From a virus (Duplodnaviria > Caudoviricetes): a DNA stretch of 64,000 nucleotides. The position numbers and the translations under genes are program-made. Positions 9,701 through 34,782 of the stretch are shown here, in pieces; the first letter of the stretch is position 1; each line of letters begins with the position of its first letter. Under the pieces are notes generated by a model that worked only from the letters and a program-made list of their open reading frames with translations, was not told the origin of the DNA and ran no database searches. Location of the stretch: the IMG/VR virus record IMGVR_UViG_3300024283_000013, positions 2,838-66,837 of that record. One strand, written 5' to 3'.

Positions 9701-10123
9701 ATCCAGCCGCCTCTGCCGATCCGACATGCCGATCGCTTCGGTCCATGAGTCGGGAAGCTGCTTCAGCGCCCAGTCCTGCGCTTCTTCCGTCAGGTAGGCA
9801 CCGCCGAACATGCCGAGCGCACCGCCTACGAAGCCGCCGATGGCACCGCCGACAGCCGTGCCCGCAGGACCGGCGATCAGAGTGCCGACGCCAGCGCCCG
9901 CAAGACCGCCCGCCTCTACACCGGCACCAGCGCCAACCAGGCCGCCAGCCGCCGGCACCGCCCCACGCTGCGCACTGCGCCGGAACGCGCCCATCGTCGA
10001 TGCCTGAGGCGTCAGGTACTTCTCGCCCGGCTCCTCATCGAACTGGTCGAAACGGTTTGGCTTGCTGTCCGGATCGAGAGCGTCGAAACGGTTGGCCTTT
10101 GGTGCGATGTCCCCGTCAGCCAT
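3776..10123 (-). CDS. Large internal virion (ejectosome, T7 gp16-position) polyvalent protein, 2115 aa, with HExxH zincin domain
   Basis: Position after gp14/gp15-like genes; ASTFIHEAGHDF...HEKFAQGFEQYLREG zincin-like motif; helical C-terminal region typical of large polyvalent virion proteins. Confidence 0.75.
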   Translation of the reverse strand: MADGDIAPKANRFDALDPDSKPNRFDQFDEEPGEKYLTPQASTMGAFRRSAQRGAVPAAGGLVGAGAGVEAGGLAGAGVGTLIAGPAGTAVGGAIGGFVGGALGMFGGAYLTEEAQDWALKQLPDSWTEAIGMSDRQRRLDESQHPTASFLGGLTPYALTMRPGLSFKAAKLPENATSMQRVMANPVTQRAFGGAVMGGFELGTEAAQGNVDWANVAYATGFGVVFNKPTRLGERLTGLGAAPVRGVADTGRAVGQVLYGRSLSFGYPDYRTGIYETELNQRGPGLRYYGDESAADRFGRTYVDENGEVRFADDRPITVAEAAARGVMGPGITEEVYRGTHLQDPTAQMLADEQHRQELAVLYGPYEQDIHSVVRHDEPELFERYDALERQRLILQQWQQETHPPSIRAQLDNLNAQATRIQAEREKPNWGPERRRLDAMADDIERQREAVLQGHAASLIGETSARGRQLGEDLRSVEAEMDRLSLEVKAAYRRAEEHLGRRPVIEPNEVEPRVQPVAPPAAGGGGAAGETFGTGTKSLGDQKAFIANDVARQLITAGRPYEEAMAAGKLMAERYAARAARFQGKLGTAEELYRREGAIIQGPEGGPRQPPPEAPAAPAAPAAAETPAPAAAAEPAPAAPAAPAPAIPEKYQGWKVGDAVEVGPVKGLMVREVLPDGFILEGQRNSRYKFTPPEKGPKASPTGLEMLEYMERLPDAEPEGPKPFADALSEEVERIWAENPQWSRTSMKGINPRTGKLRRGNRQAVARQERNVQEIARFNVMMQEAKDIIAGYVKDNTLTEEQVAFISKYYNRGADETPEQAFNRAFDKFDIRDEREALQTPSEIIGSIEDTMFQTRDSDVISLRDQVEKRWEDALKKGDRFSRNLRNLPIPTELVDLGKHDPAGAVADFERVISDVTMSDSSRVVGQQILDEMRAAHDRVRSFRDLVERAAQHVDEYKQSELFPTNNDPGRAPANDLFQGRRLGSYNPVTRIMRLGRDADASTFIHEAGHDFLEQLRRDAAHPEAPGEVRDDWDTVLQWLKVKSGEDIKRGHHEKFAQGFEQYLREGVAPSRALGDVFARFKDWLLNIYQTLKGLGKPINDDIRGVFDRMLAEEPQRTVVAPERERQPSLADVQERDAVETEPFEAPAVADRMAAEQDIAAQEPPPEVQREIQPIIAEVRAATAAPERGGEAANGAEAGGAVEGGGGAAGTEPGGGNVAEGNAAGGAGGGAATAKGPGVSGGGGSERGAGPASEPPLSPRPAQRYGAKESPYLDKAGNLRPELITNDDTLWQAMRDMADANDGFIGDRRGIVSDIEVQRQAEAIGLEGALSMAEARKIGQAHNAGELWAFGAAWETLARDQEAKMQIAGLPGATEADVLAFTEATARTQLMQAALSGGAAEGGRTLRIFQVMKNRGGSAAEIAQASMGKTLFQMRELAKLGSEMKTSREIGKFINDMQKKSFGRMVIEYWINGLISGVSTHTTYTVGNTIFATNKAIFETAAAAAIGRVRESMGREGERVHLGEVGAQISAAARGYVPSVHSSLESLRTGVTSALPGEEGRGVLPFYTGRNLVTPAALKEDATMRDVAASWFGIGRGVRDAFLVSDDVLKAIDKGDANLFGTEYSPTGTIPNVRVGALAIPTGEVARMPSRFVGAIHTFFRSMNYSMDIASQAYRKAATEGLEGMAFDARVAALRQNPTVEMMERARHTANDLTLMGAGSKFTQKMSAFFNHEFFEGSALQAPWLKLVDPFVHISSNIISEALIKRSPLGAAAYFAPKSELGRDLRGLNGNVAQDKALARMLVGTAFMTLVGGLAAQGLVSGSGPTDPREAAMWRLAGNQAHSVRIGDFWYDTHRLGVQGMLFSMAADLYDVAHLANEGQFTEAGGHLFHAITQNVLDESFMRGPSELVRAVEDHNGYGAVYLRNLGASFLPYSVLMSQTARAIDPYSREARTAIDALRQKIPSASMDLLPKYDVWGQEVPSREVLLGASGLLAIYAQHVGTDPVNQAMLQLGKYPAPVERKIRGVELTDEQHAEFAKLAGRMAKSRLDVIVNSPDWKQMPPEARSAVVDAQIRQSREVAAGYIMSRDPTIPGRAVLQKRENFDKRIQHGSQYNP

Positions 10124-12996
10124 CAGCGCGTATCCGCTTCGGGCTGTGGTCGAGGTGCTGGGGGCGCCACTTGAATCGGCTCATCGGGCACGATGCTCGT
10201 CGGCGCGTGTCGCCGGGCCACAGCAGGCTTCGACTCAGCCGGCGGCACATAGGGCGGCGGCACCGGCTTCTTCAGGCTGTTCAATATCTCCTGCGCGCTC
10301 AAACCCTGGTTGCCGTACTTGGCATCGAAGTCCTCGATCGCCCCCTTCTGATCCGGGTCGGTGCGTAGGGCATTGATGATCTTCGCCCAGTTCTGCAAGG
10401 GCATGCGCGTGCCGTTGAGGCGAGTCGGCGCCACGTCCATCCACGTCGCCCAACTATCCGGATTGGCACCCGACGGTGCCGGGGGAAGCGCCTCTTTCTG
10501 TGGCGCAGTAGCTGCCTGCCCGCTCGCCGTCAGCTTGTCCCGCGCCATCTTCGCCCGGTCCCGCATCGGCTGGGCCATCTTGTCCACGTTCTCTTGCGTC
10601 AAAAACTCCCACGGGTTTTTCCCCGCCTTCACCCATGCGTCGTATTGGGCGAGGAACTGCGGCACGAACTGGCTATGGAAGATTTTCTCGCCTTGGGGAT
10701 CACGCAGGCCGGCGAACCCGGGAGCGGCGCTTTCACCGTCGAACGACAGCAGACCCTTGGCGTAGGTCATCATGCTCATCTGAGCCTGGTGCACCATGTT
10801 GTCGTTCACGCTGCGCTGCGACGACGACAACATCCCCTGGAGTTCTTTCACGCCTGCCAAAGTCAGGTCGCCACCGGGCCCGACATGCTTCAGCAACTCG
10901 GTAGGATCGGCGATGCGATTCGGATCGCCCGGCGGCAGGGCGATGCGTTGCATCATCCCCCAGAAGCCGGGTCCATAGGTCATGGTTGCGCCCTCGACGT
11001 CGCTGCCCGACTTCATCTTGGCTGCGTTGATCAGGTGCTCCTTCGTTTGCCAAGTCAGTCGCGGATCCTTGGCGATCCGCCCGACGATACCTGGAGGGAT
11101 CGGCTGTCCACTGGCGAACGACGTCACATACTCGCCCGCCGCCTTGTCGTTGTTGTCCTTCTTCTCCTTCTCGTCGGCCTGGTACTTCAATTGGTCCGCC
11201 GTCGCGAGTTCATTTACCACGCGAAGCGCTGACGCCTTCGTCCGCGGGCTGATGTCGGTGCGCTGCGCGATGCTGTCGATCGCCGCCGCTCGCCGCCGCA
11301 TCGACTGCGCGATCGGATTGGGCACCGCCCCGGGCGCTTCCTGCCGCGGGCCCTGCATATCCATCTCCATGAAGGAGTGCATTTTGTCGTAGCGGTCCTG
11401 CGCCTCCTTCTCGGAACCATAGGACGGGAACTGATCCCAGCCGCCAGCCTTGTCGATGCGCGCCTGGATCTTGTTCCAGTCGAGCTTGTTGTCGTCGTCC
11501 CACAGGATCTGGCCATCCCACACCGACGGGATGTTGTAGTAGCGGCCGTTGTGCTCGACAGTGCCCTGCAGCACGGTCGACGTGGAACGGTCCTCATGGA
11601 CGACGCCGCCCTTGGCCAGTTCATCCAGATGATGCTGGTAGAGGTTCTTTTCCTGCGGCGTCAGTTTCAGCGCCTCGTCAGCCGCCTCGAGGTTGGCACG
11701 CACCGGCACGCGAGCCTGGTCGCCGCGCCACTGGTTCACCCGCTGCGTCAGCCACTCTGGCCAGTTCTGCCCTACCGTGCCTGAGGTGTGGTCGGTTCCC
11801 CACGCAGTATTCGCGCCCTCACGCACGTCGACATGGATGGAGTTGCTGCCCGGGTAGTAGCCGAAGCCCTTGACCCGTGGATCCTTGAGGAACTGGTCAA
11901 CCACCTTCTGCTGCTGCTCGGGACTGAGCCCGCCGAGCGAGATGTCGATCGCATTGCCATGGAGATGCTGGCTGTCCCGCGCGCCCTTGGCTGAAGCGTT
12001 CTGCGATGGCGTGCGATGCCCGGAGGTGACGTTGACCGGAATACCCGCCGCCTTCAGCGCATTGACCGCGTCCATCTGCACCGCGGCCATGCCGGGTGAG
12101 AGCCCTTCGCCGGTGTGCGTGTCGCCCGGAGGATGCGAAGCGGCGGGCGCCCCATCGGGAGGCGTCGCTCCATACTTGCCCATCTCGGTCAGGCCGAGCG
12201 CTGCACCCGCGTCGTCTTCGGACTTGGTTTTGAAATGGTCATAGAGCGTGTGGTAGTCGGTCCCCAAGTGCTCCTTGTAGTTGTCGGTCATCCGGAGCGC
12301 CTTGTCCGGGTCCTTGGCGCCGATGGCGAGGATCTGGGCCTTCGTCGCCGCCTTCAAGCCTTCCTTCTTGGCCGCCTCCCACATCGGGCTGCCAGGCGGG
12401 GCGCCCTGGTTCTCGGCCATCTTGGTGTAGCCCTCGACGACACCCTGGAAATAGCCGCCCACCGTTGGGTTGTCCGCGTTCGCCGAAAGGCCATCGAGGT
12501 TGGTCTTGATCTGCCCTTTGGCCACCTCTCCCGCATAGGCGTTCGCCTGCGTGTCGGCGTGCACGCCCATCTGGCTAGAGAGCACGCTGCGAAGCCGACG
12601 GCTGTCACGATCGAAGTAGAGCTGCTGATCCGCCGACACCAATTTGGAACGAGACGTCTTCAGAAGCTCGTCCATCTTCTTTTCATACGCCGGACGTGCT
12701 CGCAGCGCGGCGTCGCCCTTTAGCGTCATGTACCCGGGCTCGCCCGTCGCGGTGTCGCCGTGCATCAGCTTGTTGGCGGCATCCATGAACTGGTTCGACA
12801 CGTCGTTGGCAGCGATCTCGCCCCACCGATTGCCCGCCTGCTGAAGCTCATTGCCAGCCACAACCGCGCCCGCGCCGAAGTAGTCGCGGTATTGCCGACT
12901 TGGTGCGACCGGCGTCTGCGGTCGAAAGAGCGGCGCCGGGACGTTCGTCGGCGATGGAACGTCGGGGATACCTGCCGTGTCCGGGTTTGTTGCCAT
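10123..12996 (-). CDS. Internal virion protein (gp15-position) with peptidase M15 peptidoglycan-hydrolase domain
   Basis: VTSGHRT...SQHLHGNAIDI...GYY...SIHVDVR matches M15 Zn-peptidase motifs; TGATG coupling on both sides. Confidence 0.75.
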   Translation of the reverse strand: MATNPDTAGIPDVPSPTNVPAPLFRPQTPVAPSRQYRDYFGAGAVVAGNELQQAGNRWGEIAANDVSNQFMDAANKLMHGDTATGEPGYMTLKGDAALRARPAYEKKMDELLKTSRSKLVSADQQLYFDRDSRRLRSVLSSQMGVHADTQANAYAGEVAKGQIKTNLDGLSANADNPTVGGYFQGVVEGYTKMAENQGAPPGSPMWEAAKKEGLKAATKAQILAIGAKDPDKALRMTDNYKEHLGTDYHTLYDHFKTKSEDDAGAALGLTEMGKYGATPPDGAPAASHPPGDTHTGEGLSPGMAAVQMDAVNALKAAGIPVNVTSGHRTPSQNASAKGARDSQHLHGNAIDISLGGLSPEQQQKVVDQFLKDPRVKGFGYYPGSNSIHVDVREGANTAWGTDHTSGTVGQNWPEWLTQRVNQWRGDQARVPVRANLEAADEALKLTPQEKNLYQHHLDELAKGGVVHEDRSTSTVLQGTVEHNGRYYNIPSVWDGQILWDDDNKLDWNKIQARIDKAGGWDQFPSYGSEKEAQDRYDKMHSFMEMDMQGPRQEAPGAVPNPIAQSMRRRAAAIDSIAQRTDISPRTKASALRVVNELATADQLKYQADEKEKKDNNDKAAGEYVTSFASGQPIPPGIVGRIAKDPRLTWQTKEHLINAAKMKSGSDVEGATMTYGPGFWGMMQRIALPPGDPNRIADPTELLKHVGPGGDLTLAGVKELQGMLSSSQRSVNDNMVHQAQMSMMTYAKGLLSFDGESAAPGFAGLRDPQGEKIFHSQFVPQFLAQYDAWVKAGKNPWEFLTQENVDKMAQPMRDRAKMARDKLTASGQAATAPQKEALPPAPSGANPDSWATWMDVAPTRLNGTRMPLQNWAKIINALRTDPDQKGAIEDFDAKYGNQGLSAQEILNSLKKPVPPPYVPPAESKPAVARRHAPTSIVPDEPIQVAPPAPRPQPEADTR

Positions 12997-22357: not shown

Positions 22358-22700
22358 TCGCGCTTTCCTCCATAGGCTGCGGCGGCGGAGGTTCGGCCGG
22401 TTGGGCATGAAGCTCCGCAACCTGCGCCGCCAAGGCGTCCACCTTAGCAGACAATTCCACCACCTGCTCCGGCGAGATGTGCGCGAACAGCGCGTCGAAG
22501 CGCTCGTTCAGCTTCTGGATACCATCCTGAAGTCCGCGAATTTCGTCCGGCGGCGGCGCCGTGGCCAACTTCTCGACCTGAGCCTTCACCTCGGCGATGT
22601 CCTGCTCGACCTTCGCCATCATCGTGCGATCCATGTGCTCTCCTTCCTCGGCTGGTGCAGAGGTCGAATAGTGCCGGCCGCTCATGTCCTGTTGCATCAT
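22329..22700 (-). CDS. Coiled-coil hypothetical protein
   Basis: Heptad pattern; ATGA-coupled to the staple gene. Confidence 0.65.
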   Translation of the reverse strand: MMQQDMSGRHYSTSAPAEEGEHMDRTMMAKVEQDIAEVKAQVEKLATAPPPDEIRGLQDGIQKLNERFDALFAHISPEQVVELSAKVDALAAQVAELHAQPAEPPPPQPMEESANAYDKAGPE

Positions 22701-23008
22701 TCGTCCTCCGTCGCTTCGTTCTCGACCGCGAGCTTTTCGATCTGAAGCTCCACGCGCGCCGTGCGGCCGCCCTCGGTCTCGTTCTGGGAAACGCTGGTGA
22801 CCGTCGCGAAGGCGCGCAGATCGATCACGTCACCGATCTCGCAGTCGCAATCCAGACCCAGCTTCGCGAGTTCCTTCTCGGTCAGGCTGATCCGCAGCCC
22901 CCAGGGATAGCGCGGCTTCATGCTGTCGCCGCCCGCCACAGGCATCGCCATGTCGAGCTGGTCTTCGTCGTCCAACTCCATATCGGTGAGTCGGGTCCAG
23001 CCGGCCAT
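22697..23008 (-). CDS. Capsid staple-like protein
   Basis: PRYPWGLRISLTEKELAKLGL...VELQIEKL motif recalled from BPP-1-like podovirus head modules. Confidence 0.6.
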   Translation of the reverse strand: MAGWTRLTDMELDDEDQLDMAMPVAGGDSMKPRYPWGLRISLTEKELAKLGLDCDCEIGDVIDLRAFATVTSVSQNETEGGRTARVELQIEKLAVENEATEDE

Positions 23009-23012
23009 GGGG

Positions 23013-23450
23013 CTATGCCTCCGCCGGTTCGGCCGCCGGTTCCGCCGCAGCCTCGCCCGCAGGAGCCTCGCCGCCCACCGCCGGCCCCGCCGTCAGTTCC
23101 GACGCATGGCGCTTGTCCATCTCGTCGATCTCCTTCATGTGCCGTTTGTGCGCGCCGTCCCGCTCGCTGCGGTGATTGCCATGCATGTCGCGCAACTCGG
23201 TGCGGTGGCGGTTGTACATCGCCTCCCGCTCCTGCATCTGCTTGGCCGACTTGTCGTCGCCCTCGGCCGCCATCTTGGGCTCAGCCGCGCTCTCGCCGGT
23301 GACCTTCTCGACCGGATCCGCCGCCTTCTCAGGCTCCTTCGCGGGTTCCTTGGCGGCCTCCTTGGCAGGCTCCTTCTTCTCCGGCGCCTTCTTTACGGCC
23401 TCGGCAGAAGCCGCCTTCTTGTGGTCATAGAGCTTCTTGCGATCGGCCAT
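23013..23450 (-). CDS. Lys/Glu/Ala-rich protein with His-rich helix; N-terminal RKKLYDH motif
   Basis: Start re-assigned to ATG 23450 (MADRKKLYDH). Confidence 0.7.
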   Translation of the reverse strand: MADRKKLYDHKKAASAEAVKKAPEKKEPAKEAAKEPAKEPEKAADPVEKVTGESAAEPKMAAEGDDKSAKQMQEREAMYNRHRTELRDMHGNHRSERDGAHKRHMKEIDEMDKRHASELTAGPAVGGEAPAGEAAAEPAAEPAEA

Positions 23451-23454
23451 TGGC

Positions 23455-23667
23455 CTAACTCCCGGAACGAGGGTGGTCATACATCTTCTTGCGACGATGA
23501 CCCATCTTCTCAAACGTCAGCGCCAGCCGAGCGCGCTTGCCGGTCGTGCCGGGAGCATCCTTCTTCTCCTCGGCCATCTCGTGCACGGACTTGCCAGCGG
23601 CTTCCGCCTGCTTGGTAAAGGCCCCCTTCTTCAGATGCGCCTTCTGGATCCACTTCTTCTTCGCCAT
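23455..23667 (-). CDS. Small basic protein, C-terminal RRKKMYDHP
   Basis: Start re-assigned to ATG 23667; KKWIQKA...GKRARLALTFEKM family common in phage head modules. Confidence 0.7.
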   Translation of the reverse strand: MAKKKWIQKAHLKKGAFTKQAEAAGKSVHEMAEEKKDAPGTTGKRARLALTFEKMGHRRKKMYDHPRSGS

Positions 23668-23695
23668 CGTGCGGCTCGCTACATCGGTGATCGTG

Positions 23696-23917
23696 CTACT
23701 GGTCATGAAGCGTGTGCTTGTACTGCCCTCGAACCTTCGCTCGAAAGACACTGCCAGGCGACTCCGCGGCCGCAAGCTCGTGGTACACCTCGGGGGGCAC
23801 CCCGGCATAGGAATAGATGCCGCCTCCCTTGAAACGCACGAAGAGCCGTGTCCCCTGATGGCCCACCGCCTCGAGGTTGGACGACTTCACTTCCTTCATC
23901 GGAGGCAGGCCGTTCAC
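23696..23917 (-). CDS. KTSC domain protein
   Basis: VKSSNLEAVGH...LFVRFKGGGIYSYAGVPPEVYHELAAAESPGSVFRAKVRGQY. Confidence 0.9.
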   Translation of the reverse strand: MNGLPPMKEVKSSNLEAVGHQGTRLFVRFKGGGIYSYAGVPPEVYHELAAAESPGSVFRAKVRGQYKHTLHDQ

Positions 23918-24096
23918 TTCTTGCTCCCGTGGTCGTAGACCTTCTTCCGCTTCGCCGCCCAGTTCGCGATCCGGATGGCCTTACCCTCGTCCCCCGTCTC
24001 CTTGAGGATCGCATTGGCCGTCTCCGCCGCCTTGGCAGCAGCCTTGCCGTGGAGCGCCTTGTTGTGCTTGCCGAAGCTCTTGGCGTTCCACGGCAT
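23914..24096 (-). CDS. Small basic ChaB-like protein, C-terminal RKKVYDH
   Basis: MPW...KAAETANAILKETGDEGKAIRIAN pattern. Confidence 0.6.
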   Translation of the reverse strand: MPWNAKSFGKHNKALHGKAAAKAAETANAILKETGDEGKAIRIANWAAKRKKVYDHGSKK

Positions 24097-24110
24097 CGCC
24101 GGTCTCTCGT

Positions 24111-25427
24111 TTACAGCTCAGCGTTCGCCGTGATCTTGCCGGAACCGTTGTTGTCCGCGATCGTCATGGACAGCCCAACCGCAATGGTCGAACTGGTCAG
24201 GCTGCAAAGTGCCATAGCCTGCTGGGTCGACACGACATAGGTGATACTTGTCGCCGCAGCGAGCGCCGAGCAAGCGGTCGCGGTGGTCTCCGCCGTGGTG
24301 GTGAACCCAGCAAAGCCGGCGGTGTAGGCCATAGTCGGCGCGACGCGCATCGGCACTGGGAACACGACCGGGAACACAAGCCTGCCCGCTCCGTCGCCGG
24401 CGCCGGCCGTGGTGATGTGACCGACGAAACGCGGGATAAGCGTCGCACCCTCCGCGACCTGGTAGTAGTAGCGATACTGCGCCAGAGACTCGGTTTCTTG
24501 AGTGCGGCGGGCGAAAGACTTGGCCCGCGTATCGTTCGGCGAAAGAGCCACACCTGCCGTTCCAGCCGCGGCAGTCAATGCGCTGTTGCGCGTCAACTGG
24601 ATACCGGAGAAGGCGATGTAGTCGTTGGTGCTCGCCGTGCCCACCGGGGTGAAGCACAGAGCCACCGCCACCTGCGTCGTTGCCGCCGGAACCGGGATCG
24701 CCACGGTGTAGCGGTTGTTCGTCGAGGAGATCGTGACGTTCACGCCAATGGCAACGCCGCCCGTGAAGCCGGGAGTGCCGCCGCCACCCGCGTTGACGGT
24801 GAAGGCCGCCAGTGCTGCGCTTTCATCCGTGCCCGTGCCAGACACGAGGTAGGCCGTCATCACCGAGTTGGCCGCGGAGAAGTTGGCACCCGCCGTCGCA
24901 TGGAAGTCGATCTCGGCGGTCTGCCCGGAGAACTGGTAGCTGTTCGCCGACTCCAGCGCCTGAATCATGCACACCGGAAGGACGCCGGTCTGACCGGACG
25001 TGCGCGCCATCTTGAAGCCCGACTTGAAGGTGCCCGCCGCCGGCAGATCGGCCGCCGTGGTCGTGCGGCTAACCGTCATCGCCGTGGCAGTGCCCGACCA
25101 GTAGGCCCACCGATCCGGGCCGCCGTAGGTCGTGGTCGTGGTGACGCTCGAGCCGGTCGTCGCGCGCTGCCACAGGTTGGTCGTGGAGTCGCCGCCAATC
25201 AGCGCGTTCTCCGGATTGTTGCCCGAGAGCGTTTCGCTGTAGTTGCCCAGCAACGCCGCCGATGCGTACTGGCTCTGCGCGCTCGGCTGACCGCGCGGGA
25301 TGATCTGGATCAGGTCGGTGGAGCCGATCGACTGCACCTGCGGCACGCTGATCGTCTGAGCCAGCGCGATGCCGCCGATGAGAGCGGTGGCGGCCAGAAC
25401 GCCCGCGAGTAGCTTCTTGAAGTTCAT
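24111..25427 (-). CDS. Fibre/head-spike-like carbohydrate-binding protein with Sec signal peptide
   Basis: NALIGGDSTTNLWQR...GPDRW motif of fibre CBM-like domains; MNFKKLLAGVLAATALIGGIALA|Q. Confidence 0.7.
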   Translation of the reverse strand: MNFKKLLAGVLAATALIGGIALAQTISVPQVQSIGSTDLIQIIPRGQPSAQSQYASAALLGNYSETLSGNNPENALIGGDSTTNLWQRATTGSSVTTTTTYGGPDRWAYWSGTATAMTVSRTTTAADLPAAGTFKSGFKMARTSGQTGVLPVCMIQALESANSYQFSGQTAEIDFHATAGANFSAANSVMTAYLVSGTGTDESAALAAFTVNAGGGGTPGFTGGVAIGVNVTISSTNNRYTVAIPVPAATTQVAVALCFTPVGTASTNDYIAFSGIQLTRNSALTAAAGTAGVALSPNDTRAKSFARRTQETESLAQYRYYYQVAEGATLIPRFVGHITTAGAGDGAGRLVFPVVFPVPMRVAPTMAYTAGFAGFTTTAETTATACSALAAATSITYVVSTQQAMALCSLTSSTIAVGLSMTIADNNGSGKITANAEL

Positions 25428-25437
25428 GGTCGCTCCT

Positions 25438-25812
25438 TCAGTTCACGATGACGTAGTTGTAGATGCTGGTATCGAGAGCGGTGCCGCCCACGGTGAAGCC
25501 AGTACCCGGAGTTGTGGTCAGCACGTTTGGCGAGTTCGGGCTCACCGTTCCGCCGACCGTCTTCAGGGTGAAGATCACCACCGAGTTGGCGGTCATCCGC
25601 GCGTTGGTCACCGTTACCGGCGTGGCGCCATTCAGCGTCACCGTCCCGCTCGACAGAGTGAAGTAGCAGGAGGTCGTGCACGGCGAGCCGATGCCGGTGA
25701 CGTTCGTCTGCGTGCCGAAGGTGGAAAGCCGCTGCATACCTCCCTGCGCAAAGGCGATCGACGCGATGGCGGCGAACAGCGCGGCAGCAATGAACATTCT
25801 GAGCTTGGTCAT
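25438..25812 (-). CDS. Small beta-rich virion-type protein with Sec signal peptide
   Basis: GTVTLNGATPVTVTNARMTANSVVIFT...GTGFTV head-fibre-like motif; MTKLRMFIAAALFAAIASIAFA|Q; CTTSC. Confidence 0.65.
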   Translation of the reverse strand: MTKLRMFIAAALFAAIASIAFAQGGMQRLSTFGTQTNVTGIGSPCTTSCYFTLSSGTVTLNGATPVTVTNARMTANSVVIFTLKTVGGTVSPNSPNVLTTTPGTGFTVGGTALDTSIYNYVIVN

Positions 25813-25819
25813 GATGCCC

Positions 25820-26707
25820 TCACATGATTGCCGGCACGGACAGCGATACCGATGCCTGGCCGGTCGTCGAGACGCGATAGTTGACGGTCACACCCGACGT
25901 CGCCGTGTAGGTCGCCGTGTTGACGCGATAGAGAACGGATGCCTCCGGATCACCGAAGGCGATCGAATAGGGCATGTTGGCCGCCAGCAGCGACGCAAGC
26001 GCACCGAAGCCGACGCCGACGCCGACCCAGGTCGACCCACCGTCGAAACTGCGCTCGAGTTGCCCAGTCAGGACGCTCGGCTGGTAGCCGCTGCCGACGC
26101 CGGTGAAAACCGCCGCAGTGTCGGTCCCGGCCACGTCGATCACGTTGCCCGTCGGGGCGAACCAAATCAGCGGCGGATCCTTGTTGGCGGCCGGCGCCGA
26201 AGTCGCCGCAGCCGACATGACCAGCGACGTCCCGTCAGCGCCAACCATCACCACCGTGACGCCGGAGGCAAAGTACGGGCTGTCCACCGTCGCGCCGACC
26301 AAGGTCGAAAGCGCCTTGCCATTGGGAAGCTTGTTGGCGGCGTCCACCGTCATCTGCACGGTCAGGCTGTTGACCGCCGGCAGGCCCGCCCACGCCTGCG
26401 GCGCGAACTTCATGGTGAACGTGCCGCCGCTCGGATCCGAGCCGACCGTAGTCCCCGGCGGCACCAGCGTCGACTTGACGGCATCGCCGACCGCCTTGCC
26501 CGTGCCGCTGGCGGTGCCAGTGGTAGAGCCGGCCGTCACCGCGAGCGAAGTGACCCGCGATCCGTACAGGACGAAGTTGAGCGGCCCCCAGGCGGAGAAC
26601 GCCTTCCCGGGACCAACCCCGGAAATGGTGCCGCTGACGACCCCATTGGCCCGGTCGGCGCTGACCTTGTCAGAGCCGCTGACCCCAGGAAGGGAGGGGA
26701 TGCCCAC
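25820..26707 (-). CDS. Putative virion (decoration) protein
   Basis: Beta-rich Gly/Thr/Ala composition, head-module position; no signal peptide. Confidence 0.55.
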   Translation of the reverse strand: MGIPSLPGVSGSDKVSADRANGVVSGTISGVGPGKAFSAWGPLNFVLYGSRVTSLAVTAGSTTGTASGTGKAVGDAVKSTLVPPGTTVGSDPSGGTFTMKFAPQAWAGLPAVNSLTVQMTVDAANKLPNGKALSTLVGATVDSPYFASGVTVVMVGADGTSLVMSAAATSAPAANKDPPLIWFAPTGNVIDVAGTDTAAVFTGVGSGYQPSVLTGQLERSFDGGSTWVGVGVGFGALASLLAANMPYSIAFGDPEASVLYRVNTATYTATSGVTVNYRVSTTGQASVSLSVPAIM

Positions 26708-27457
26708 TTATCCGGTCACTCCCGCAAGGTTCTGCCTGGCGCGCTTCGCCACGGTGCCGAGCACCGCAACGTCCGGCGCTTCCGGATGGCTGTTGTCGAG
26801 GGTCAGGTCGTCGGCGAACTCCGCCTCACCGGCCGCGAACTGTCTCTTGGGCGGATCACCCTTCACGGTGAGGCCCGCGGAGGTCATGTAGTAGGGGCGC
26901 TGGTCGGCGGTCGGAATCGCCTCCGGGCGTCCGCCGGTGCTGATGTCCCAGGCGTCGTAAATCTGCCGCGCCATGTCGTTGACCGGCACCATCGAACGGT
27001 TGGGCACGCCAGTCCAGCGCACCTCGTTGTTCACCTGCCGCTTGTCCGGGAGCATCCGGTACGGCTGGATGCGACGCTCGTTGAGGTACACCGGGGTGAC
27101 GATCCGATACTCGGGCCGCTCCAGCACTGGTAATGTGCGCGAGTGCATGATCAGGTCGACCATGCGGTTGTGCGCGTCCTCGCGGCGCTGCGACTCCTCG
27201 ATCGAGATGGGCTTGTTGTACTGCCCCTGCTTGCTCGAGTTGTTGATGTTGATGCCCAGCTTCTCGATCGCCACGGCCAGCATCGCCATGACCTGATTCT
27301 CGGGAGACGCCGGCACCGACACCTTGGCGAGGATGTCCCTCTTGAAGGCTTCCATCTGCTCGGCGACGACCGCCGCCGCGCGAGCATCGACCGCCTTCTC
27401 GAACTCCTCCGTCTCGACGACGCGCTGCCGGCCGCGCCGACCTTCTGTCTCTTCCAT
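26708..27457 (-). CDS. Hypothetical head-module protein
   Basis: Start re-assigned to ATG 27457 (MEETEG); follows the cement gene. Confidence 0.65.
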   Translation of the reverse strand: MEETEGRRGRQRVVETEEFEKAVDARAAAVVAEQMEAFKRDILAKVSVPASPENQVMAMLAVAIEKLGININNSSKQGQYNKPISIEESQRREDAHNRMVDLIMHSRTLPVLERPEYRIVTPVYLNERRIQPYRMLPDKRQVNNEVRWTGVPNRSMVPVNDMARQIYDAWDISTGGRPEAIPTADQRPYYMTSAGLTVKGDPPKRQFAAGEAEFADDLTLDNSHPEAPDVAVLGTVAKRARQNLAGVTG

Positions 27458-27468
27458 CAGAGGCTCCC

Positions 27469-28035
27469 TTAGCCGGCGACCTTGTAGTTGGCCGGCATGT
27501 AGCGATTGGCGTTGTCCGGGCGGCCCATGGTCACCACCGCGTTCGCCACCGTGCCCGCGGTCATGGTCGCCGACGGCGAGAACAGCAGGCGCAGGAATCG
27601 CGGCTGGAAGTTGACCGGGAAGGCCGGCGGGAAATCGAAGCGGCCGAACACGGCATTGGCGCCGAGATCGGCGACAGCCATGGCGCCCGTTTCGATCAGC
27701 GTGCGCCAGGTGCCGGGGTTGCCGGTGCCATCGTCGATGGCGCCCTGGAACTTGCAATTGAGCGTGGCGCCGGCACTGGTGGTGAAGGCGGTTCCCACCG
27801 CGCACTCCACCAGCGGCTTCACCCCACCAATGCCCATGTCGGCGCCGAACACCGTCCGGTTGCCGATGATGGCGTTGCCGCCAGTGAGACCGGCCGTCGC
27901 GGCGCTGGCCGCAGCCGGTGCCACGACGCCGACGCCGAGCCCCAGGAGGTCGATGACGTTCGACGGCACATCGACGGTCGTGATGGCCACGTTGCTGCCC
28001 GGCGGCAGAAAATTGACTAGCGCGTCTGTGATCAA
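27469..28035 (-). CDS. Capsid cement protein (BPP-1 Bbp16-like)
   Basis: TTG start with AGGAGG; MITDAL...SNVIDL...DMGIG...RFLRL...TAGTV jelly-roll pattern. Confidence 0.8.
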   Translation of the reverse strand: MITDALVNFLPPGSNVAITTVDVPSNVIDLLGLGVGVVAPAAASAATAGLTGGNAIIGNRTVFGADMGIGGVKPLVECAVGTAFTTSAGATLNCKFQGAIDDGTGNPGTWRTLIETGAMAVADLGANAVFGRFDFPPAFPVNFQPRFLRLLFSPSATMTAGTVANAVVTMGRPDNANRYMPANYKVAG

Positions 28036-28076
28036 GATAGACCTCCTACAACGAGGCTGTTAAAAGTAGTCGGCAC

Positions 28077-28823
28077 ATGCGACCACTTCCTGAGAGACTG
28101 GCTGCGATAGCGGCCGGCCAGAGCTTTTACTTCACCGGCAAGCCGTGCAGTAAAGGACACCTTTCCAAGCGATACGTTCGAGACAATCGATGCGCTCAAT
28201 GCGCCAGCGAAGCGAGCCTCCGCTGGATGAAGAAGGCTCCGCCGCATCCTCTCCGCCAAGCCGCGAAGGATGCAGGACAGCCGCGCTACAACACCGGCGA
28301 ACCGTGCCCTCATGGACATTGGGTCGACAGGTACACATCGAATGGCTTCTGCGTCGTGTGCGCTGCCGCCAAGGTTAAACGCTACCACGCGCGCAACCCG
28401 GGACTTGAAGCCAAGTGGGCGCGCGATCGGCGAGCGAAAGACCCGACCCGCCACCGCGCAGAAGTGAAGCGCTGGCGTGAGAACAATCGCGAAAAGGCCA
28501 CTGCGGCGCTTAAGCGATGGATGGCTGCCAACCCCGAGCGGGTCAAAGCGCTCAGGATTGCCGGGGTCAATAATCGCCGCGCCCGCGTGGCAGCCAACGG
28601 CGGCAGTTTCACCGCAGACGACATCGAGCAACTGTACGTCCGACAGGACGGCAGATGTGCCGTGTGCCCTTGCACAGATGGTCTCGAAATCGATCATATA
28701 CTTCCTATCATCCTCGGCGGGTCAAGCGATCCTTCAAACCTTCAACTTCTGTGTCTTCCTTGTAATCGCTCCAAGGGACGGAAGCATCCGGATCAATGGA
28801 AGGCCGAACTTAAGCCACGGTAG
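28077..28823 (+). CDS. HNH endonuclease, antisense to the late operon
   Basis: Two TG(K/E)PC..GH...RY....C..C repeats; CAVC...IDHILPIILGGSSDPSNLQLLCLPCNRSKG. Confidence 0.85.
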   Translation: MRPLPERLAAIAAGQSFYFTGKPCSKGHLSKRYVRDNRCAQCASEASLRWMKKAPPHPLRQAAKDAGQPRYNTGEPCPHGHWVDRYTSNGFCVVCAAAKVKRYHARNPGLEAKWARDRRAKDPTRHRAEVKRWRENNREKATAALKRWMAANPERVKALRIAGVNNRRARVAANGGSFTADDIEQLYVRQDGRCAVCPCTDGLEIDHILPIILGGSSDPSNLQLLCLPCNRSKGRKHPDQWKAELKPR

Positions 28824-29859
28824 ACTCTGTATTTAAGAGTTGGTCTATCACCTTCACGGGAATATCGCGGAACCCGGTGATCGGCATGCCGGCGTAGTCC
28901 TTGATGGACAGCAGCACGTTGCGATCGCGGAGCGCCTGGATGTCCATGGCGTGGCGGACGGTGCGGTTGCAGTAGTAGACCGGGTGGACGCCGTAGTCGT
29001 CGAGCGGCGCGTCGGTCTTGGTGATGCCGGACGTGGTGCGCGTGAGCTTCGGGAACAGCAGTTCCATCTGGCCCATGGCAACGAACAGGTCCGGCGGCGT
29101 CGGGCCGAACAAGCCGACCGAGCCGTTGGTGGTGTCGAGGTTGGCGTAGCGCACGCAGTAGCGCCAGTCCTTCGGGCACAGGCCGGACTGCTGGCGGAAC
29201 CATGAGGTATAGGCTTCGAAGCGATTGCCCAGCGAATCGAAGCCCGGGGTCACATCGCCCTTGTCCTCCATGTCCAGGCCGGCGCGGCTGCCCTCCGGGA
29301 AGACGCCGAAGATCGCCTCCGGGCCCCAGCCGATCAGCCACATCGAGGCGTTCGAGGAGCCCGACCCGCCGCCGCTGAGCACGTTCGCCGCGTTCTGCGC
29401 CGTCGTCGTGGTCAGGGTGTTGTAGAACGGCGAGAAGCCCATGAACTCGAGCGGCTGCTGGACCGAGTTGCCGTACAGGAAGGTGGCGACGATGGTCTGC
29501 GCCATGCCCTCGAGGAAGGCTGCGTCCTCGCTCTCGCGGAAGCGCTCCTTGTCGCCCGAATGCTCGGCGAGCGCCCGGTCGACCTGCGAGTAGTCCTCGA
29601 GCATGCCCATGTCGACCGTCGCCTTGGCCGTGGTGCTCTTGGAGTAGGGCACGCCCATGTTGTAGCCGCGCCACGAACCGGCGGGGATGGACGTGCGGAA
29701 GACGAACTCGTGCTTGGTGCGGCCGTTGGCCTTCACCCACGGGACGTCATCGTAGAAATCGTTGCACTGGGACAACATCTCCGCGATGACCGGGATCTTC
29801 CCTTCCGGATCCAGCCGGGAAGACACGTCGATCAGGGTAGGCCACGAGCCTGTCTCCAT
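28810..29859 (-). CDS. Major capsid protein (BPP-1 Bbp17-like, HK97 fold)
   Basis: PTLIDVSSRLDPEGK...IAEMLSQCN...RTSIP...WRGYN.GV..SKSTT...EDAAFLEGMAQ...DWRYCVRYAN. Confidence 0.9.
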   Translation of the reverse strand: METGSWPTLIDVSSRLDPEGKIPVIAEMLSQCNDFYDDVPWVKANGRTKHEFVFRTSIPAGSWRGYNMGVPYSKSTTAKATVDMGMLEDYSQVDRALAEHSGDKERFRESEDAAFLEGMAQTIVATFLYGNSVQQPLEFMGFSPFYNTLTTTTAQNAANVLSGGGSGSSNASMWLIGWGPEAIFGVFPEGSRAGLDMEDKGDVTPGFDSLGNRFEAYTSWFRQQSGLCPKDWRYCVRYANLDTTNGSVGLFGPTPPDLFVAMGQMELLFPKLTRTTSGITKTDAPLDDYGVHPVYYCNRTVRHAMDIQALRDRNVLLSIKDYAGMPITGFRDIPVKVIDQLLNTESTVA

Positions 29860-29884
29860 TTCAGATTCTCCTCTTGATCATGGC

Positions 29885-30838
29885 TCAACCGTTCCGGTTG
29901 TTGGGGGAGGTCGGGTGATCGTAAACGATCTGCCGCCGCGTTCGCTGGCCGCGCCCGGCATCAGGCGGCGCCTTGATTTGGTCGTGCGGGACGTCGCTGG
30001 CCTGGCGCTCGTCGAGGTAGCGCGCCGCATTGTGCAGCATCTTCCAGAAGACAGGGTGATCGCCCGAGCCGGTGAGCCGGAAGAACTTGTCGGCCTCGAC
30101 CGCGTCACGGCGGTACTGCTCGCTGCCCGGGGGCGCCGAACTGATCAGCTTGTCGCGCATGCGGGCGACCGTCTTGACGGTGGTCTGGAAGCCACTGCCG
30201 CCAAGCTCCTCGTCGCTCATGATCTGCTTCTGCCAGTCCATGCGGGTCTGGTTAAAGACCTTGTGCTGGCGCTCGGTAGTCGCCTGCGCGAAGTCGGCCA
30301 TCGCCTTCTTATGGAAGTCGACCAGCGGCTGGGCATTGCTGGGATCGACCCGCAAGCCATCGAGTATGCCGTGGAACTCGGTACGGCGCGTGTCGTCGAG
30401 CGCCAATTCCTCGCCCAGGTCGTACTTGTACTCGACCGGCGCCGGCTTCTCCGGTTCGACCGGCGTCTCGACCTTCGGCGCTTCTGCAGGCTTCTCGGCT
30501 TCGACCTTCGCTGGCTCGGCAGGCTTGGTCTCTGCCGGCTTCTCCGGCTCGGCTTTCGGCGGCTCTTCGACCTTCGCGGGCTCTTCGACCTTCGGCGGCT
30601 CCTCGACCGAACCCGGCGCCTTCGCCTGCTCGAGCAGCGACGGCATCTCGGAGACGGTGGCCGGAACCTCCGGCTCTGCCTTGGTCTCGGCCGGCGGCGC
30701 CGACACGGTTTCAGGCGAAACAGGAGTCGATTGCGGCGGCGTAGCCTCGGCGACGACCGGCGCGGGATCGGCGCGCGGCGGCGGGTCGGGGATGCCCGGC
30801 GTGGCCAGTTCGGCGCCAGTGACGACTGGATCGGCCAT
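29885..30838 (-). CDS. Capsid scaffolding protein
   Basis: Pro/Glu/Lys-rich repeats (EEPPKVEEPAKVEEPPK), helical core, GSGDHPVFWKMLHN motif, immediately upstream of the capsid gene. Confidence 0.8.
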   Translation of the reverse strand: MADPVVTGAELATPGIPDPPPRADPAPVVAEATPPQSTPVSPETVSAPPAETKAEPEVPATVSEMPSLLEQAKAPGSVEEPPKVEEPAKVEEPPKAEPEKPAETKPAEPAKVEAEKPAEAPKVETPVEPEKPAPVEYKYDLGEELALDDTRRTEFHGILDGLRVDPSNAQPLVDFHKKAMADFAQATTERQHKVFNQTRMDWQKQIMSDEELGGSGFQTTVKTVARMRDKLISSAPPGSEQYRRDAVEADKFFRLTGSGDHPVFWKMLHNAARYLDERQASDVPHDQIKAPPDAGRGQRTRRQIVYDHPTSPNNRNG

Positions 30839-32774: not shown

Positions 32775-32932
32775 CACCGACCTCCCTCGAACGCGGCATT
32801 GAGCGCAGCAGCGGCCGCACGCTCCTCCAACTCTCGATCTTCTAACAACGCCCGCTCACAGGTGAGGCGGCGCGCGTGAAGCCGGCCGCAGCGTAGGCAC
32901 TTGACGACGAGATCATCCTCAGTGATCGGCAT
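32774..32932 (-). CDS. Small CxxC hypothetical protein
   Basis: MPITEDDLVVKCLRCGRLH; TGATG coupling to the portal stop. Confidence 0.55.
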   Translation of the reverse strand: MPITEDDLVVKCLRCGRLHARRLTCERALLEDRELEERAAAAALNAAFEGGR

Positions 32933-34782
32933 CACCGACCTCCAGGCGCTCCGGTCAACTGATCGAGCACCGTTCCGTTGCCAAGCGGCGTCTTCCCAAG
33001 GATCCCCGCCGCCTGCACACCCGCCATCGCGTCCTGCCGACCTTCCACGCCTTGATGCGCCTTGGCGATCTCCGCCGCCCGCGCCGCGTCGTGTTCCTTC
33101 ACCTCGTCCGGGGTGTAGAGCAGGTGCACCTTCTGGTGCGTCGCCTTGGCGAAGTCGCGAGCCCACTGCTCGAGGTTCACGATGCGCAACGGGTCGGGCA
33201 GAGTGGCCGCCTTCGCCGCCGCCGATGCCGCGCCCATGCCGGTGATGAAGTCCTTCAGGCCGACCGCCTCGCTGGCCTGAAGCGCCAGGCGGATGATCGA
33301 AGTGTAGTTGATCTTGAGCGGCACGCCCTGCAGGGACGGCGGCACCGGCGGGAACATCCCGCGCCGCATCATGATGGCGAAGATGCGCTGGAGCGCCGGA
33401 GACGCCCCCTCGCGCTCGAACAGTTCGATCACCGGCCCGAGTCGCATCAACCGCTCGAGATCGCGCTTGGTCAGTTCAAGCTCGTTGCGCGGCTGGACGC
33501 CTGCCATCTGGCTGATCGCCAGGAACACGTCGACGAACAGGCACGACTTGATGCGCGCCACCACAGCGGTGATGTCCTGCACCAGCCACTGTAGCCACGC
33601 CGGGTTGACCTCGAACAGCGGCCAGAAGCCTTTCTTGCCGCCCGCGGTATTCATGTAGGTGATGCGCGCCGGGATGATCGACGCCGGCTCGTTCTTTAGC
33701 TCGGGGTCGGCGCCCATCGGCGGCCGGACGCCCTTCTCGATGAACTCCGCCTTGCGAAGCTCCTCCATCTGCACTTGCTTGTTGTCGCCGAGGGCGTTCA
33801 TGCAGGGCGAGCGGCCATAGGGCTCGTTGCTCGCCACCGCCCACCGCGGCGCCACGAACGGCTTCTCATGGAAGCCCCGGATCGACAACGGCTTCTCGCC
33901 CTTGTTGCCGCGCAGCCAGTAGGTCTCCCGCCACGCGAAGCTACTTGGGATCGGCCGCACCTTATCGCGCTGCCCGGGAGAGCCGACCGCAAAGTTGGGC
34001 TCGACCGAATGGCAGATCACCACCTCGGTGTCGATCGACCCACCCTTGGTCTTCCACATCTGCTGGATTTCCGCCGGCACGTTCTCCAGGCCGAAGAACT
34101 CGATCACCTGCAGGATGGTCTGCACGTACTCGCGATTGAGCGTGTCGATGGTGAGCCGCGCGCCGGCCCCCAGGTAGTATTCGCCCGGGCACGGCTGGTA
34201 GAGGCGGATCACCTCCTCCATGTCCTCGTAGATCAGGAACGGCGCGGTGCCGAAGACCACCAGATCTTCGCACACCTGCGGCATGACGATGTTCCAGTTC
34301 GACTGGTCGATCACCGTCCGCACCCGTGTGCCCGCATCCTCGAGCCACGTCTTGCCCGCCTGGTCCAGCCTCTCCTGCATGCCGGGCGGCGCCGCCTCGA
34401 ACACGTACCAGGGCCGCGCCGGGTCCATCAGACCCATGAACATGCCGCTGCCGCAGATGCCTACCGCCTGCAAGCCCTCGGAGTTGATGATCTGGTCATT
34501 GATCGGCGCGCCCTTCCACATCCTGTTGGCCACAACTGCCAGGAATTGCCACCTTCTTGGCATGAAGAAAGCAGCCAGCAACTGCCAATGAAGCAGCCAT
34601 GCCCAGCGCCACGACCGGAGCGCATTGCGGCGAGCCTCAAGGTGATTGTAGAGCGCGCCCCACCATGGAGCCTCGGGCCGCGGCTTGGCGTAGTCCGTCT
34701 CCGGCTCGTCCGCCAGGAGAGAGGGGCCCATGATCTCGTAATGAGCGAACCCCGGATTGCGAACGGGAGAGCCGTCGGGCAT
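32932..34782 (-). CDS. Portal (head-to-tail connector, T7 gp8/Bbp21 family)
   Basis: LMDPARPW, DLVVFGTA, YGRSPCMNALGD.KQ, RLMRLGPVIE, IVNLEQWARDFA; 616 aa. Confidence 0.9.
   Translation of the reverse strand: MPDGSPVRNPGFAHYEIMGPSLLADEPETDYAKPRPEAPWWGALYNHLEARRNALRSWRWAWLLHWQLLAAFFMPRRWQFLAVVANRMWKGAPINDQIINSEGLQAVGICGSGMFMGLMDPARPWYVFEAAPPGMQERLDQAGKTWLEDAGTRVRTVIDQSNWNIVMPQVCEDLVVFGTAPFLIYEDMEEVIRLYQPCPGEYYLGAGARLTIDTLNREYVQTILQVIEFFGLENVPAEIQQMWKTKGGSIDTEVVICHSVEPNFAVGSPGQRDKVRPIPSSFAWRETYWLRGNKGEKPLSIRGFHEKPFVAPRWAVASNEPYGRSPCMNALGDNKQVQMEELRKAEFIEKGVRPPMGADPELKNEPASIIPARITYMNTAGGKKGFWPLFEVNPAWLQWLVQDITAVVARIKSCLFVDVFLAISQMAGVQPRNELELTKRDLERLMRLGPVIELFEREGASPALQRIFAIMMRRGMFPPVPPSLQGVPLKINYTSIIRLALQASEAVGLKDFITGMGAASAAAKAATLPDPLRIVNLEQWARDFAKATHQKVHLLYTPDEVKEHDAARAAEIAKAHQGVEGRQDAMAGVQAAGILGKTPLGNGTVLDQLTGAPGGR

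Follow-up and report, generated by a model that had tools for sequence, protein, structure and literature searches.

A terminal peptide shared by the scaffold and three small proteins of a BPP-1-like phage: a candidate tag for docking to the capsid protein

The question raised by the head genes of IMG/VR virus record IMGVR_UViG_3300024283_000013 is why a scaffolding protein should share a short terminal peptide with three otherwise unrelated small proteins. The window analysed here is a stretch of 64,000 bases (bases 2838-66837 of a single 66,837-base contig; coordinates below are window positions), in which all four genes lie on the minus strand. These are the gene of the scaffolding protein (29885-30838; 317 residues), a homolog of BPP-1 Bbp18 and epsilon15 gp6 (PHROG 458, E 2.6e-13) encoded directly upstream of the capsid gene, and those of p60 (23914-24096; 60 residues), p70 (23455-23667; 70 residues; PHROG 20603) and p145 (23013-23450; 145 residues). 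The reading favoured here, held with moderate confidence, is that the peptide would be an uncleaved docking tag that copies the capsid-binding tail of the scaffold and brings the small proteins into the procapsid.

The shared peptide and its conservation

The C-terminus of the scaffold reads RRQIVYDHPTSPNNRNG, those of p60 and p70 read KRKKVYDHGSKK and RRKKMYDHPRSGS, and the N-terminus of p145 reads MADRKKLYDHKK. The tags themselves, all on the minus strand, are TRRQIVYDHPTS in the scaffold (29906-29941, Tyr 11 residues before the stop), AKRKKVYDHGSK in p60 (23920-23955, Tyr 6 residues before the stop), HRRKKMYDHPRS in p70 (23464-23499) and ADRKKLYDHKKA in p145 (residues 2-13; 23412-23447), such that three of the four are C-terminal with the Tyr 6-11 residues before the stop and p145 alone carries its tag at the N-terminus. 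When the six frames were scored with a 12-residue tag profile built from relatives with the window excluded, the top four matches were the four tags, at 35.2 bits for p70 (the best match in the genome), 20.5 for p60, 20.0 for the scaffold and 17.3 for p145, with the next match at 14.7 bits. YDH occurs five times against about 1.9 expected from base composition over the six frames of the 66,837-base genome, and four of the five copies are both terminal and set in a basic-x-hydrophobic-YDH context (the C-termini of the scaffold, p60 and p70 and the N-terminus of p145), the fifth (12235-12243) being internal, in a non-basic context, below 9 bits in the profile and apparently a chance occurrence. 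The YDH count against expectation, taken with the profile ranking, rules out a chance origin of the four tags. Matches to the profile were 25 times denser per position in the last 14 residues than elsewhere, the scoring profile being derived from these same tags.

Outside the tag the proteins are unrelated. Alignment of the p60 and p70 families with hhalign after trimming of the tails gave a probability of 0.5%, ruling out that p60 and p70 are paralogs, and BLASTP among the tagged proteins returned nothing beyond the tag and a low-complexity Pro/Glu/Ala/Lys likeness. As such, the initial annotation of this stretch was right to place a motif at four protein ends, always terminal, on proteins with nothing else in common; its wording of the motif as YDH, which is present at all four ends, was too narrow, the conserved core being basic-x-x-[LIMVF]-Y. 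The junction of the p70 and p145 genes separates their tags (23421-23481) by 52 bases; the two are read in different frames, each with the rare codon TAT, and a local duplication may have created one or the other.

The comparison on which this core rests covers about 170 related phages, with loci labelled L001 upward. A search with the capsid protein recovered 80 IMG/VR loci at 56-87% identity, which make up the clade of the window, and 80 further IMG/VR loci belong to a wider group. In the clade, 75 of 75 scaffold homologs carry basic-x(1-3)-[LIMVF]-Y no more than about 14 residues from the stop, and of about 85 scaffolds in the wider group nearly all end in basic...[LIMVF]-[YF] about 14 residues or less from the stop, with a stretch rich in Pro before the motif in both groups. 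The residues after the scaffold Tyr vary, reading DHP(R/S/T)S, DNPRS, THPTS, PSM, SQTR, KS, GK or TK, such that relatives have basic-x-x-[LIMVF]-Y in common as the constant part of the tag, DHP(R/S)S behind the Tyr being a clade-specific form that not all of the clade has. A clade of lower G+C content (L089-L096) has QRFYGKKS and KSMYGKVKK and, at the N-terminus, AERMYGKS.

The small proteins keep their tags likewise. Homologs of p60 were found in 13 loci, all with the tag at the C-terminus, p70 homologs carry a C-terminal tag in 33 loci, and the p145 homologs, found in 41 loci, have theirs always near the N-terminus, 5-25 residues in. With the scaffold tail present in every clade homolog, this is the conservation on which the initial annotation had staked its proposal. 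A fifth tagged family of about 60 residues occurs in 15 loci, and with nine tagged singleton open reading frames (ORFs) the bearers amount to at least five recurrent families plus the nine singletons. The set of tagged families differs between related genomes, and L087 alone has six tagged ORFs in a row (L087:6207-7999), three of them with His replacing the Tyr. Among 105 database homologs of p70, about 54 have the Tyr tail, about 11 the variant with His for Tyr, and about 40 end right after the conserved core; the tail-less p70 homolog of L095 belongs to a phage with another capsid family, PF19821. Found on many unrelated families and missing from many homologs of the same family, the tag behaves as a portable add-on, much as the initial annotation had proposed. 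In L095 the gene preceding the PF19821 capsid gene (L095:4695-5618) ends ..KLFNLMYPDG, and hydrophobic-Tyr-Pro scaffold tails may reach beyond the GP7 capsid family.

Tags on different families resemble one another within a genome. In L075 they read AEKRYGK, EEKRYGK and AEKRYPK on different families, in L024 SPLYTHPTS stands on two proteins, in L003 SRMYDH on four and in L060 LRDxY on three; the tags of L080 are FYTK, YYTK, LYSRK and FYSK, those of L013 YAQ, YKQ and YKS, and those of L023 YKS, YKS and YKG. Co-variation with the scaffold tail in relatives, named beforehand as a check on the capsid-targeting idea, was indeed found. Over ten flanking positions, with locus labels shuffled and one representative per capsid cluster at 85% identity, tag similarity within genomes was 20.0 against 8.6 +/- 2.1 in permutations for scaffold and p70, 13.5 against 4.7 +/- 1.9 for scaffold and p145, and 17.4 against 8.5 for p70 and p145, with 0 of 10,000 permutations reaching the observed value in each case, although label permutations and Mantel tests ignore relatedness, overstate significance and do not give true probabilities.

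Common ancestry alone would not lead different families in a genome to arrive at one variant. Codon agreement at identical tag residues was 42.6% within genomes against 41.0% in comparisons across genomes, and this equality indicates that the likeness of the tags is maintained on the protein and not by gene conversion or a DNA signal; a DNA-level motif and gene conversion were both ruled out on this ground.

Mosaic junctions and cultured relatives

The putative docking partner is the major capsid protein (28810-29859, minus strand; Pfam PF20911 (GP7), E 8e-96), and the mosaic genomes of related phages bear on whether the scaffold tail goes with this protein or with the body of the scaffold. 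Epsilon15 and phiV10 share 80% identity in the portal, 85-88% in gp3, gp11 and gp12 and 70% over the whole scaffold, with about 86-90% in its core, whereas identity is only 43% in the capsid protein, 32% in gp8, 38% in gp9 and 41% in gp10. The two scaffolds are nearly identical until about 12 residues before the C-terminus and then switch completely. In the Pseudomonas phages Ab31 and Shamal the scaffold core is 95% and the capsid protein 51% identical, and the tails differ. L154 and L174 compared with L107-L109 (core about 80%, capsid protein about 51%) have the same junction. In the reverse case, L109 and L111 against L112, the scaffold cores are 33-38% and the capsid proteins 83-86% identical, and the tails are alike. 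In the pairs L083/L086 (L086 being epsilon15) and L084/L085, otherwise 80-95% identical, the scaffold gene has a sharp junction about 12 codons from its end, with capsid, cement, gp9 and gp10 making up the diverged block.

Across 74 non-redundant loci of the wider group, tail divergence correlated with capsid divergence when the core was controlled (partial r 0.56, 0/2000), and its partial correlation with core divergence when the capsid was controlled was -0.15. These comparisons show the scaffold tail going with the capsid gene, and not with the scaffold core, at no fewer than three mosaic junctions, as would fit coat binding. For the partner of the tail the mosaics favour the capsid protein or the product of a neighbouring gene of that block.

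The same pattern recurs, in different sequences, in cultured phages, the closest of which have a capsid protein only about 40% identical to that of the window. Here the second bearer is the Gp10-like protein. In epsilon15 the scaffold gp6 ends ..DLISAFYPKK and gp10 ends ..LKDAFYPDGEDD (..DAFYPDGEDD), and in phiV10 the scaffold p09 ends ..SAAEVLYGK and the Gp10-like p13 ends ..SAAETLYGNGGE (..AETLYGNGGE). In BPP-1 the scaffold Bbp18 ends ..ARRLYAASNMNP (..RRLYAASNMNP) and the Gp10-like Bbp20 ends ..AQRLYGASSMSA (..QRLYGASSMSA), and in Caulobacter phage Jess A the scaffold gp48 ends ..AKSLYPNSNHN and the Gp10-like gp52 ends ..AAKLYKDTD. In the wider group all 17 of the 17 Gp10-like homologs recovered have a hydrophobic-Tyr tail resembling that of their own scaffold, the similarity of scaffold and Gp10-like tails being 12.6 against 2.9 +/- 2.5 in permutations, of which 3 of 10,000 reach 12.6. 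Literature searches returned no description of a shared scaffold tail in epsilon15 or BPP-1 phages, and in the phage collection no cultured close relative with virion proteomics was found, nor any match to p145.

The 111-residue gp10 of epsilon15 has been reported by proteomics of infectious particles (PMC9207676). It was once modelled as an outer "staple", but its predicted fold misfits that density, which is fitted by the 130-residue gp8 (PMC9207676), the homolog of Bbp16, the cement protein of BPP-1 (PMC3863775). The name of family PF21628 ('Gp10-like, major coat protein-like') rests on the staple assignment in 3J40 that has been argued to be wrong (PMC9207676). Since gp10 is reported from virion proteomics and misfits the staple density, it is a tagged, virion-reported protein without an assigned place, as would be expected of an internal protein loaded by way of the scaffold site.

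The window encodes a member of this family, the Gp10-like protein at 22697-23008 (minus strand; PF21628, E 3e-14; PDB 3J40_N, E 3e-10), which differs from the cultured members in having an acidic tail and no tag, as do most Gp10-like homologs in the clade. The p145 gene always lies directly before the Gp10-like gene, and p145 may be an adaptor that bears the tag on behalf of the acidic-tailed protein encoded beside it.

A probable docking tag and the alternatives

Under the favoured reading, basic-x-x-[LIMVF]-Tyr, which in the window takes the form (K/R)(K/R)x-hydrophobic-YDH with P-x-S behind it, would be the part of the scaffold that touches the major capsid protein in the procapsid, presented at the end of a flexible Pro-rich linker. 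With the C-terminal copies of p60 and p70 and the N-terminal copy of p145, the small proteins would occupy scaffold sites on the inner capsid wall and be trapped once the shell is complete. Binding to the capsid protein, entry into the procapsid, retention in the virion and any function of the cargo are steps that we infer from the comparisons of sequence. Since p60 and p70 are small and strongly basic (14 Lys and Arg against 5 Asp and Glu in p60 and 19 against 7 in p70, net charge about +9 and +12), they would most likely be internal head proteins in contact with the DNA, and might exit together with it.

The tag probably remains attached, since no prohead protease gene was found: a prohead protease domain was absent from the ORFs between portal and capsid and from the head module, the genome as a whole not having been exhaustively scanned. 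In BPP-1 the capsid proteins are uncleaved (PMC3863775). Bbp18, gp6 and PHROG 458 are labelled 'protease' in their records, a label traced to an old similarity note. The AlphaFold2 model of the scaffold is disordered over residues 1-140, all-helical over residues 149-276 with a predicted local distance difference test (pLDDT) score above 90, and of low confidence in the tail; it matched no protease or other fold in the PDB, and its matches in the viral library were same-family "putative protease" entries only. As such, the label would seem to be a relic of earlier annotation, and the gene appears to encode a scaffold. That the tag might be a prohead-protease cleavage site was ruled out on these three grounds, the lack of a protease gene among those searched, the legacy label and the all-helical model.

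Short portable peptides that load proteins into shells are known elsewhere. In T4 one such peptide brings unrelated small and often basic proteins (IPI-III and Alt) into the prohead, being N-terminal and removed by the prohead protease, whereas the tag described here is mostly C-terminal and the stretch from portal to capsid gene yielded no protease gene. The cargo-loading peptides of encapsulins are likewise short and terminal, dock cargo inside a shell of the HK97 fold and can be transferred to foreign proteins. Encapsulins have no scaffold, portal or DNA, unlike the present genome with its portal, scaffold and tail genes; the consensus peptides are not alike, and the comparison is not meant to imply homology.

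Closest among known systems is that of 80alpha and SaPI1, where the N-arm of the capsid protein is bound by the C-terminal 16-21 residues of the 80alpha scaffold, and these residues are copied by SaPI1 CpmB (Dearborn et al. 2017, PMC5644958). Here as there, a short C-terminal peptide of the scaffold, coat-binding in 80alpha and putatively so here, is copied on a second small and otherwise unrelated protein. The differences are that CpmB, with its 'helix-and-hook' RIIK tail, is the competing scaffold of a satellite and shrinks the capsid, whereas the phages studied here encode three to six mimics in their own late operon; that the peptide is basic-x-x-hydrophobic-Tyr and not RIIK and may also be N-terminal; and that the capsid family is another. 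The initial annotation took it as established that podovirus scaffolds bind coat by their C-terminus, which is established for P22 (and for the siphophage 80alpha), the present scaffold family being a putative further case; for P22, the discussion in PMC5644958 cites a basic C-terminal element of the scaffold as binding coat protein. That element is a folded helix-turn-helix of about 30 residues and the tag a linear peptide of about 10, and PDB searches with the scaffold found no likeness to it in sequence or fold. We know of no P22 protein that copies the helix-turn-helix.

Several observations weigh against docking of the tag to the capsid protein, beside the neglect of relatedness in the permutations. 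When a coarse two-state trait, [HN]P behind the Tyr, was put to a phylogeny-aware sign test, two pairs were concordant and none opposite (p 0.5; underpowered, with only 3-5 changes). In the clade of the window the tail correlates alike with the capsid protein (0.23) and the scaffold core (0.27), and the scaffold tail is encoded about 25 bases from the capsid gene, such that linkage alone favours their joint transfer. Linkage cannot explain the tags of the cargo proteins, since the Bbp20 gene of BPP-1 lies upstream of the scaffold gene and yet the tails match. The scaffolds of L052, L058, L061, L063, L067 and L069 read IYSQTR or IYDQTR, and in the four of these six loci where small proteins were recovered these proteins retain LYDHP(R/K)S; in their capsid proteins the six loci barely differ from L065, where the scaffold has IYDHPRS. 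As DHPxS changes in the scaffold with the capsid protein nearly unchanged, it may serve something besides the capsid site; alternatively, cargo may need a tighter fit than a multivalent scaffold. In L087 the small proteins read SPLH(D/S)HPRSP with His for Tyr and the scaffold keeps its Tyr. The Gp10-like protein of the window itself is untagged, and the virion record of epsilon15 gp10 has been called putative (PMC9207676).

A different role for the same binding is that p60, p70 and p145 are assembly factors, which would dock to the capsid protein through the tag, compete with the scaffold or assist it, for example in scaffold occupancy, shell curvature or scaffold release, and leave with it at DNA entry. 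The co-variation and the coupling to the capsid gene underlie this reading equally, and the nearest precedent, CpmB, acts as a scaffold in competition and is not cargo. The build of p145, a disordered Pro/Glu/Lys-rich linker plus helices, is scaffold-like, and with a genome of 66.8 kilobases, against about 40 kilobases in epsilon15 and BPP-1, control of head size is conceivable. However, the tagged gp10 of epsilon15 is reported in mature virions, p60 and p70, very small and strongly basic, are predicted to be compact and show nothing like the oligomerising domain of a scaffold, and a set of tagged families that varies between related genomes suits accessory cargo better than core assembly machinery. 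A role in assembly is unlikely, if the main rival.

Less probable still is that the peptide binds another partner, whether the portal, the cement protein, a gp9-like protein, or a host chaperone or protease that would read it as a degron or short linear motif. The evidence for the partner is indirect, gp8 and gp9 also lie in the diverged block of epsilon15 and phiV10, and the DHPxS part can change in the scaffold without a change in the capsid protein. Nevertheless, the tails of epsilon15 and phiV10 are unrelated despite portals that are 80% identical, which argues against the portal. Host factors are argued against by the close relationship of the hosts of these two phages, Salmonella and E. 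coli, whose chaperones and proteases should be much alike, and by Ab31 and Shamal, which both infect P. aeruginosa and have different tails. A tag that works at either terminus is unlike a terminal degron, and the divergence of the tail tracks that of the capsid.

That the tags have no common function, and arose by chance, from composition, from a DNA-level signal or by recent copying of gene ends through recombination, is scarcely credible, for although a local duplication could have made one of the neighbouring p70 and p145 tags, with their shared TAT codon, the four sites are the top four matches of an independent profile, tags persist across dozens of genomes that have diverged, codons agree no more often inside a genome than across genomes, and distant cultured phages repeat the pattern in other sequences.

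The loading of small proteins into the heads of tailed phages that have no prohead protease is poorly understood, and capsid docking through a shared tag would give a concrete sequence rule for a large group of podophages that includes the structural model phages epsilon15 and BPP-1. The present work extends the idea of scaffold-tail tags to the BPP-1/epsilon15 group, ties it to epsilon15 gp10, a protein without an assigned place, and adds evidence from mosaics for a scaffold tail that travels with the capsid gene. Tentatively, the group as a whole may share an uncleaved basic-x-x-hydrophobic-Tyr peptide, at either end of a protein, that loads variable phage-specific small proteins at the inner face of the capsid. 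The docking reading offers an explanation for gp10 in virions and would, if true, place both gp10 and BPP-1 Bbp20 inside the capsid. It predicts that the last dozen residues of the scaffold hold its specificity for the capsid protein. If true, it would also provide a genetically encoded tag for loading chosen proteins into capsids of the epsilon15/BPP-1 type, and flag likely internal or ejected phage proteins, basic and of 60-70 residues, that are now annotated as hypothetical.

The small proteins and the surrounding head module

Database searches returned little for the tagged proteins. Pfam searches at E values up to 10 found nothing for p60 or p70 and for p145 only a sub-threshold match to PKK, below the family cut-off, and searches of PDB chains with profiles of the scaffold, p70 and p145 found no match. 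For p60 there was only a weak lead in the protein atlas to ChaB-like proteins (score 0.86). The AlphaFold2 model of p70 is a small four-helix protein (pLDDT 79) with no structural match in the PDB. In p145 the N-terminal tag leads into a charged, disordered linker rich in Lys, Glu and Pro, after which come a conserved helical core rich in His and Arg and an end rich in Ala and Pro; the core (23100-23250) has the conserved pattern H-RH--ER--MH--HE-ERRD-HGNHR-EH--M--RH with no Pfam, PHROG or PDB match, and could be a metal- or nucleic-acid-binding helical hairpin.

The head module is of the BPP-1/epsilon15-like podophage type, with a PF20911 capsid protein and the order portal, scaffold, capsid. 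The genes follow on the minus strand from the portal (32932-34782; PF12236, E 4e-98) through the scaffold and capsid genes to a probable cement protein, several proteins of function unknown, p60, a KTSC-domain protein, p70, p145 and the Gp10-like protein, and terminase-side and tail genes are present in the genome alongside the portal and scaffold. The capsid protein matches 3J4U (BPP-1) and 3J40 (epsilon15) among PDB sequences and is 38-40% identical to the capsid proteins of BPP-1, phiV10 and Jess A. Between the capsid and cement-like genes, on the plus strand, lies an HNH endonuclease (28077-28823; PF01844 and PF14279), probably a homing endonuclease inserted into the head operon.

The probable cement (decoration) protein (27469-28035, minus strand; PHROG 427) would be the counterpart of Bbp16 and epsilon15 gp8; a Pfam scan gave no match, and it shares with Bbp16 and Jess A gp46 the place after the capsid gene and an N-terminal MITD start. 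Two of the proteins of unassigned function between it and p60 start in a signal-peptide-like manner. The KTSC-domain protein between p60 and p70 (23696-23917, minus strand; PF13619, E 4.7e-15) is untagged, with no match to the tag profile at 9 bits or more, and the start of its gene overlaps the end of the p60 gene by four bases. The fifth YDH of the genome belongs to a protein of 957 residues (10123-12996, minus strand) with a Peptidase_M15 domain, which is probably a virion-borne cell-wall hydrolase.

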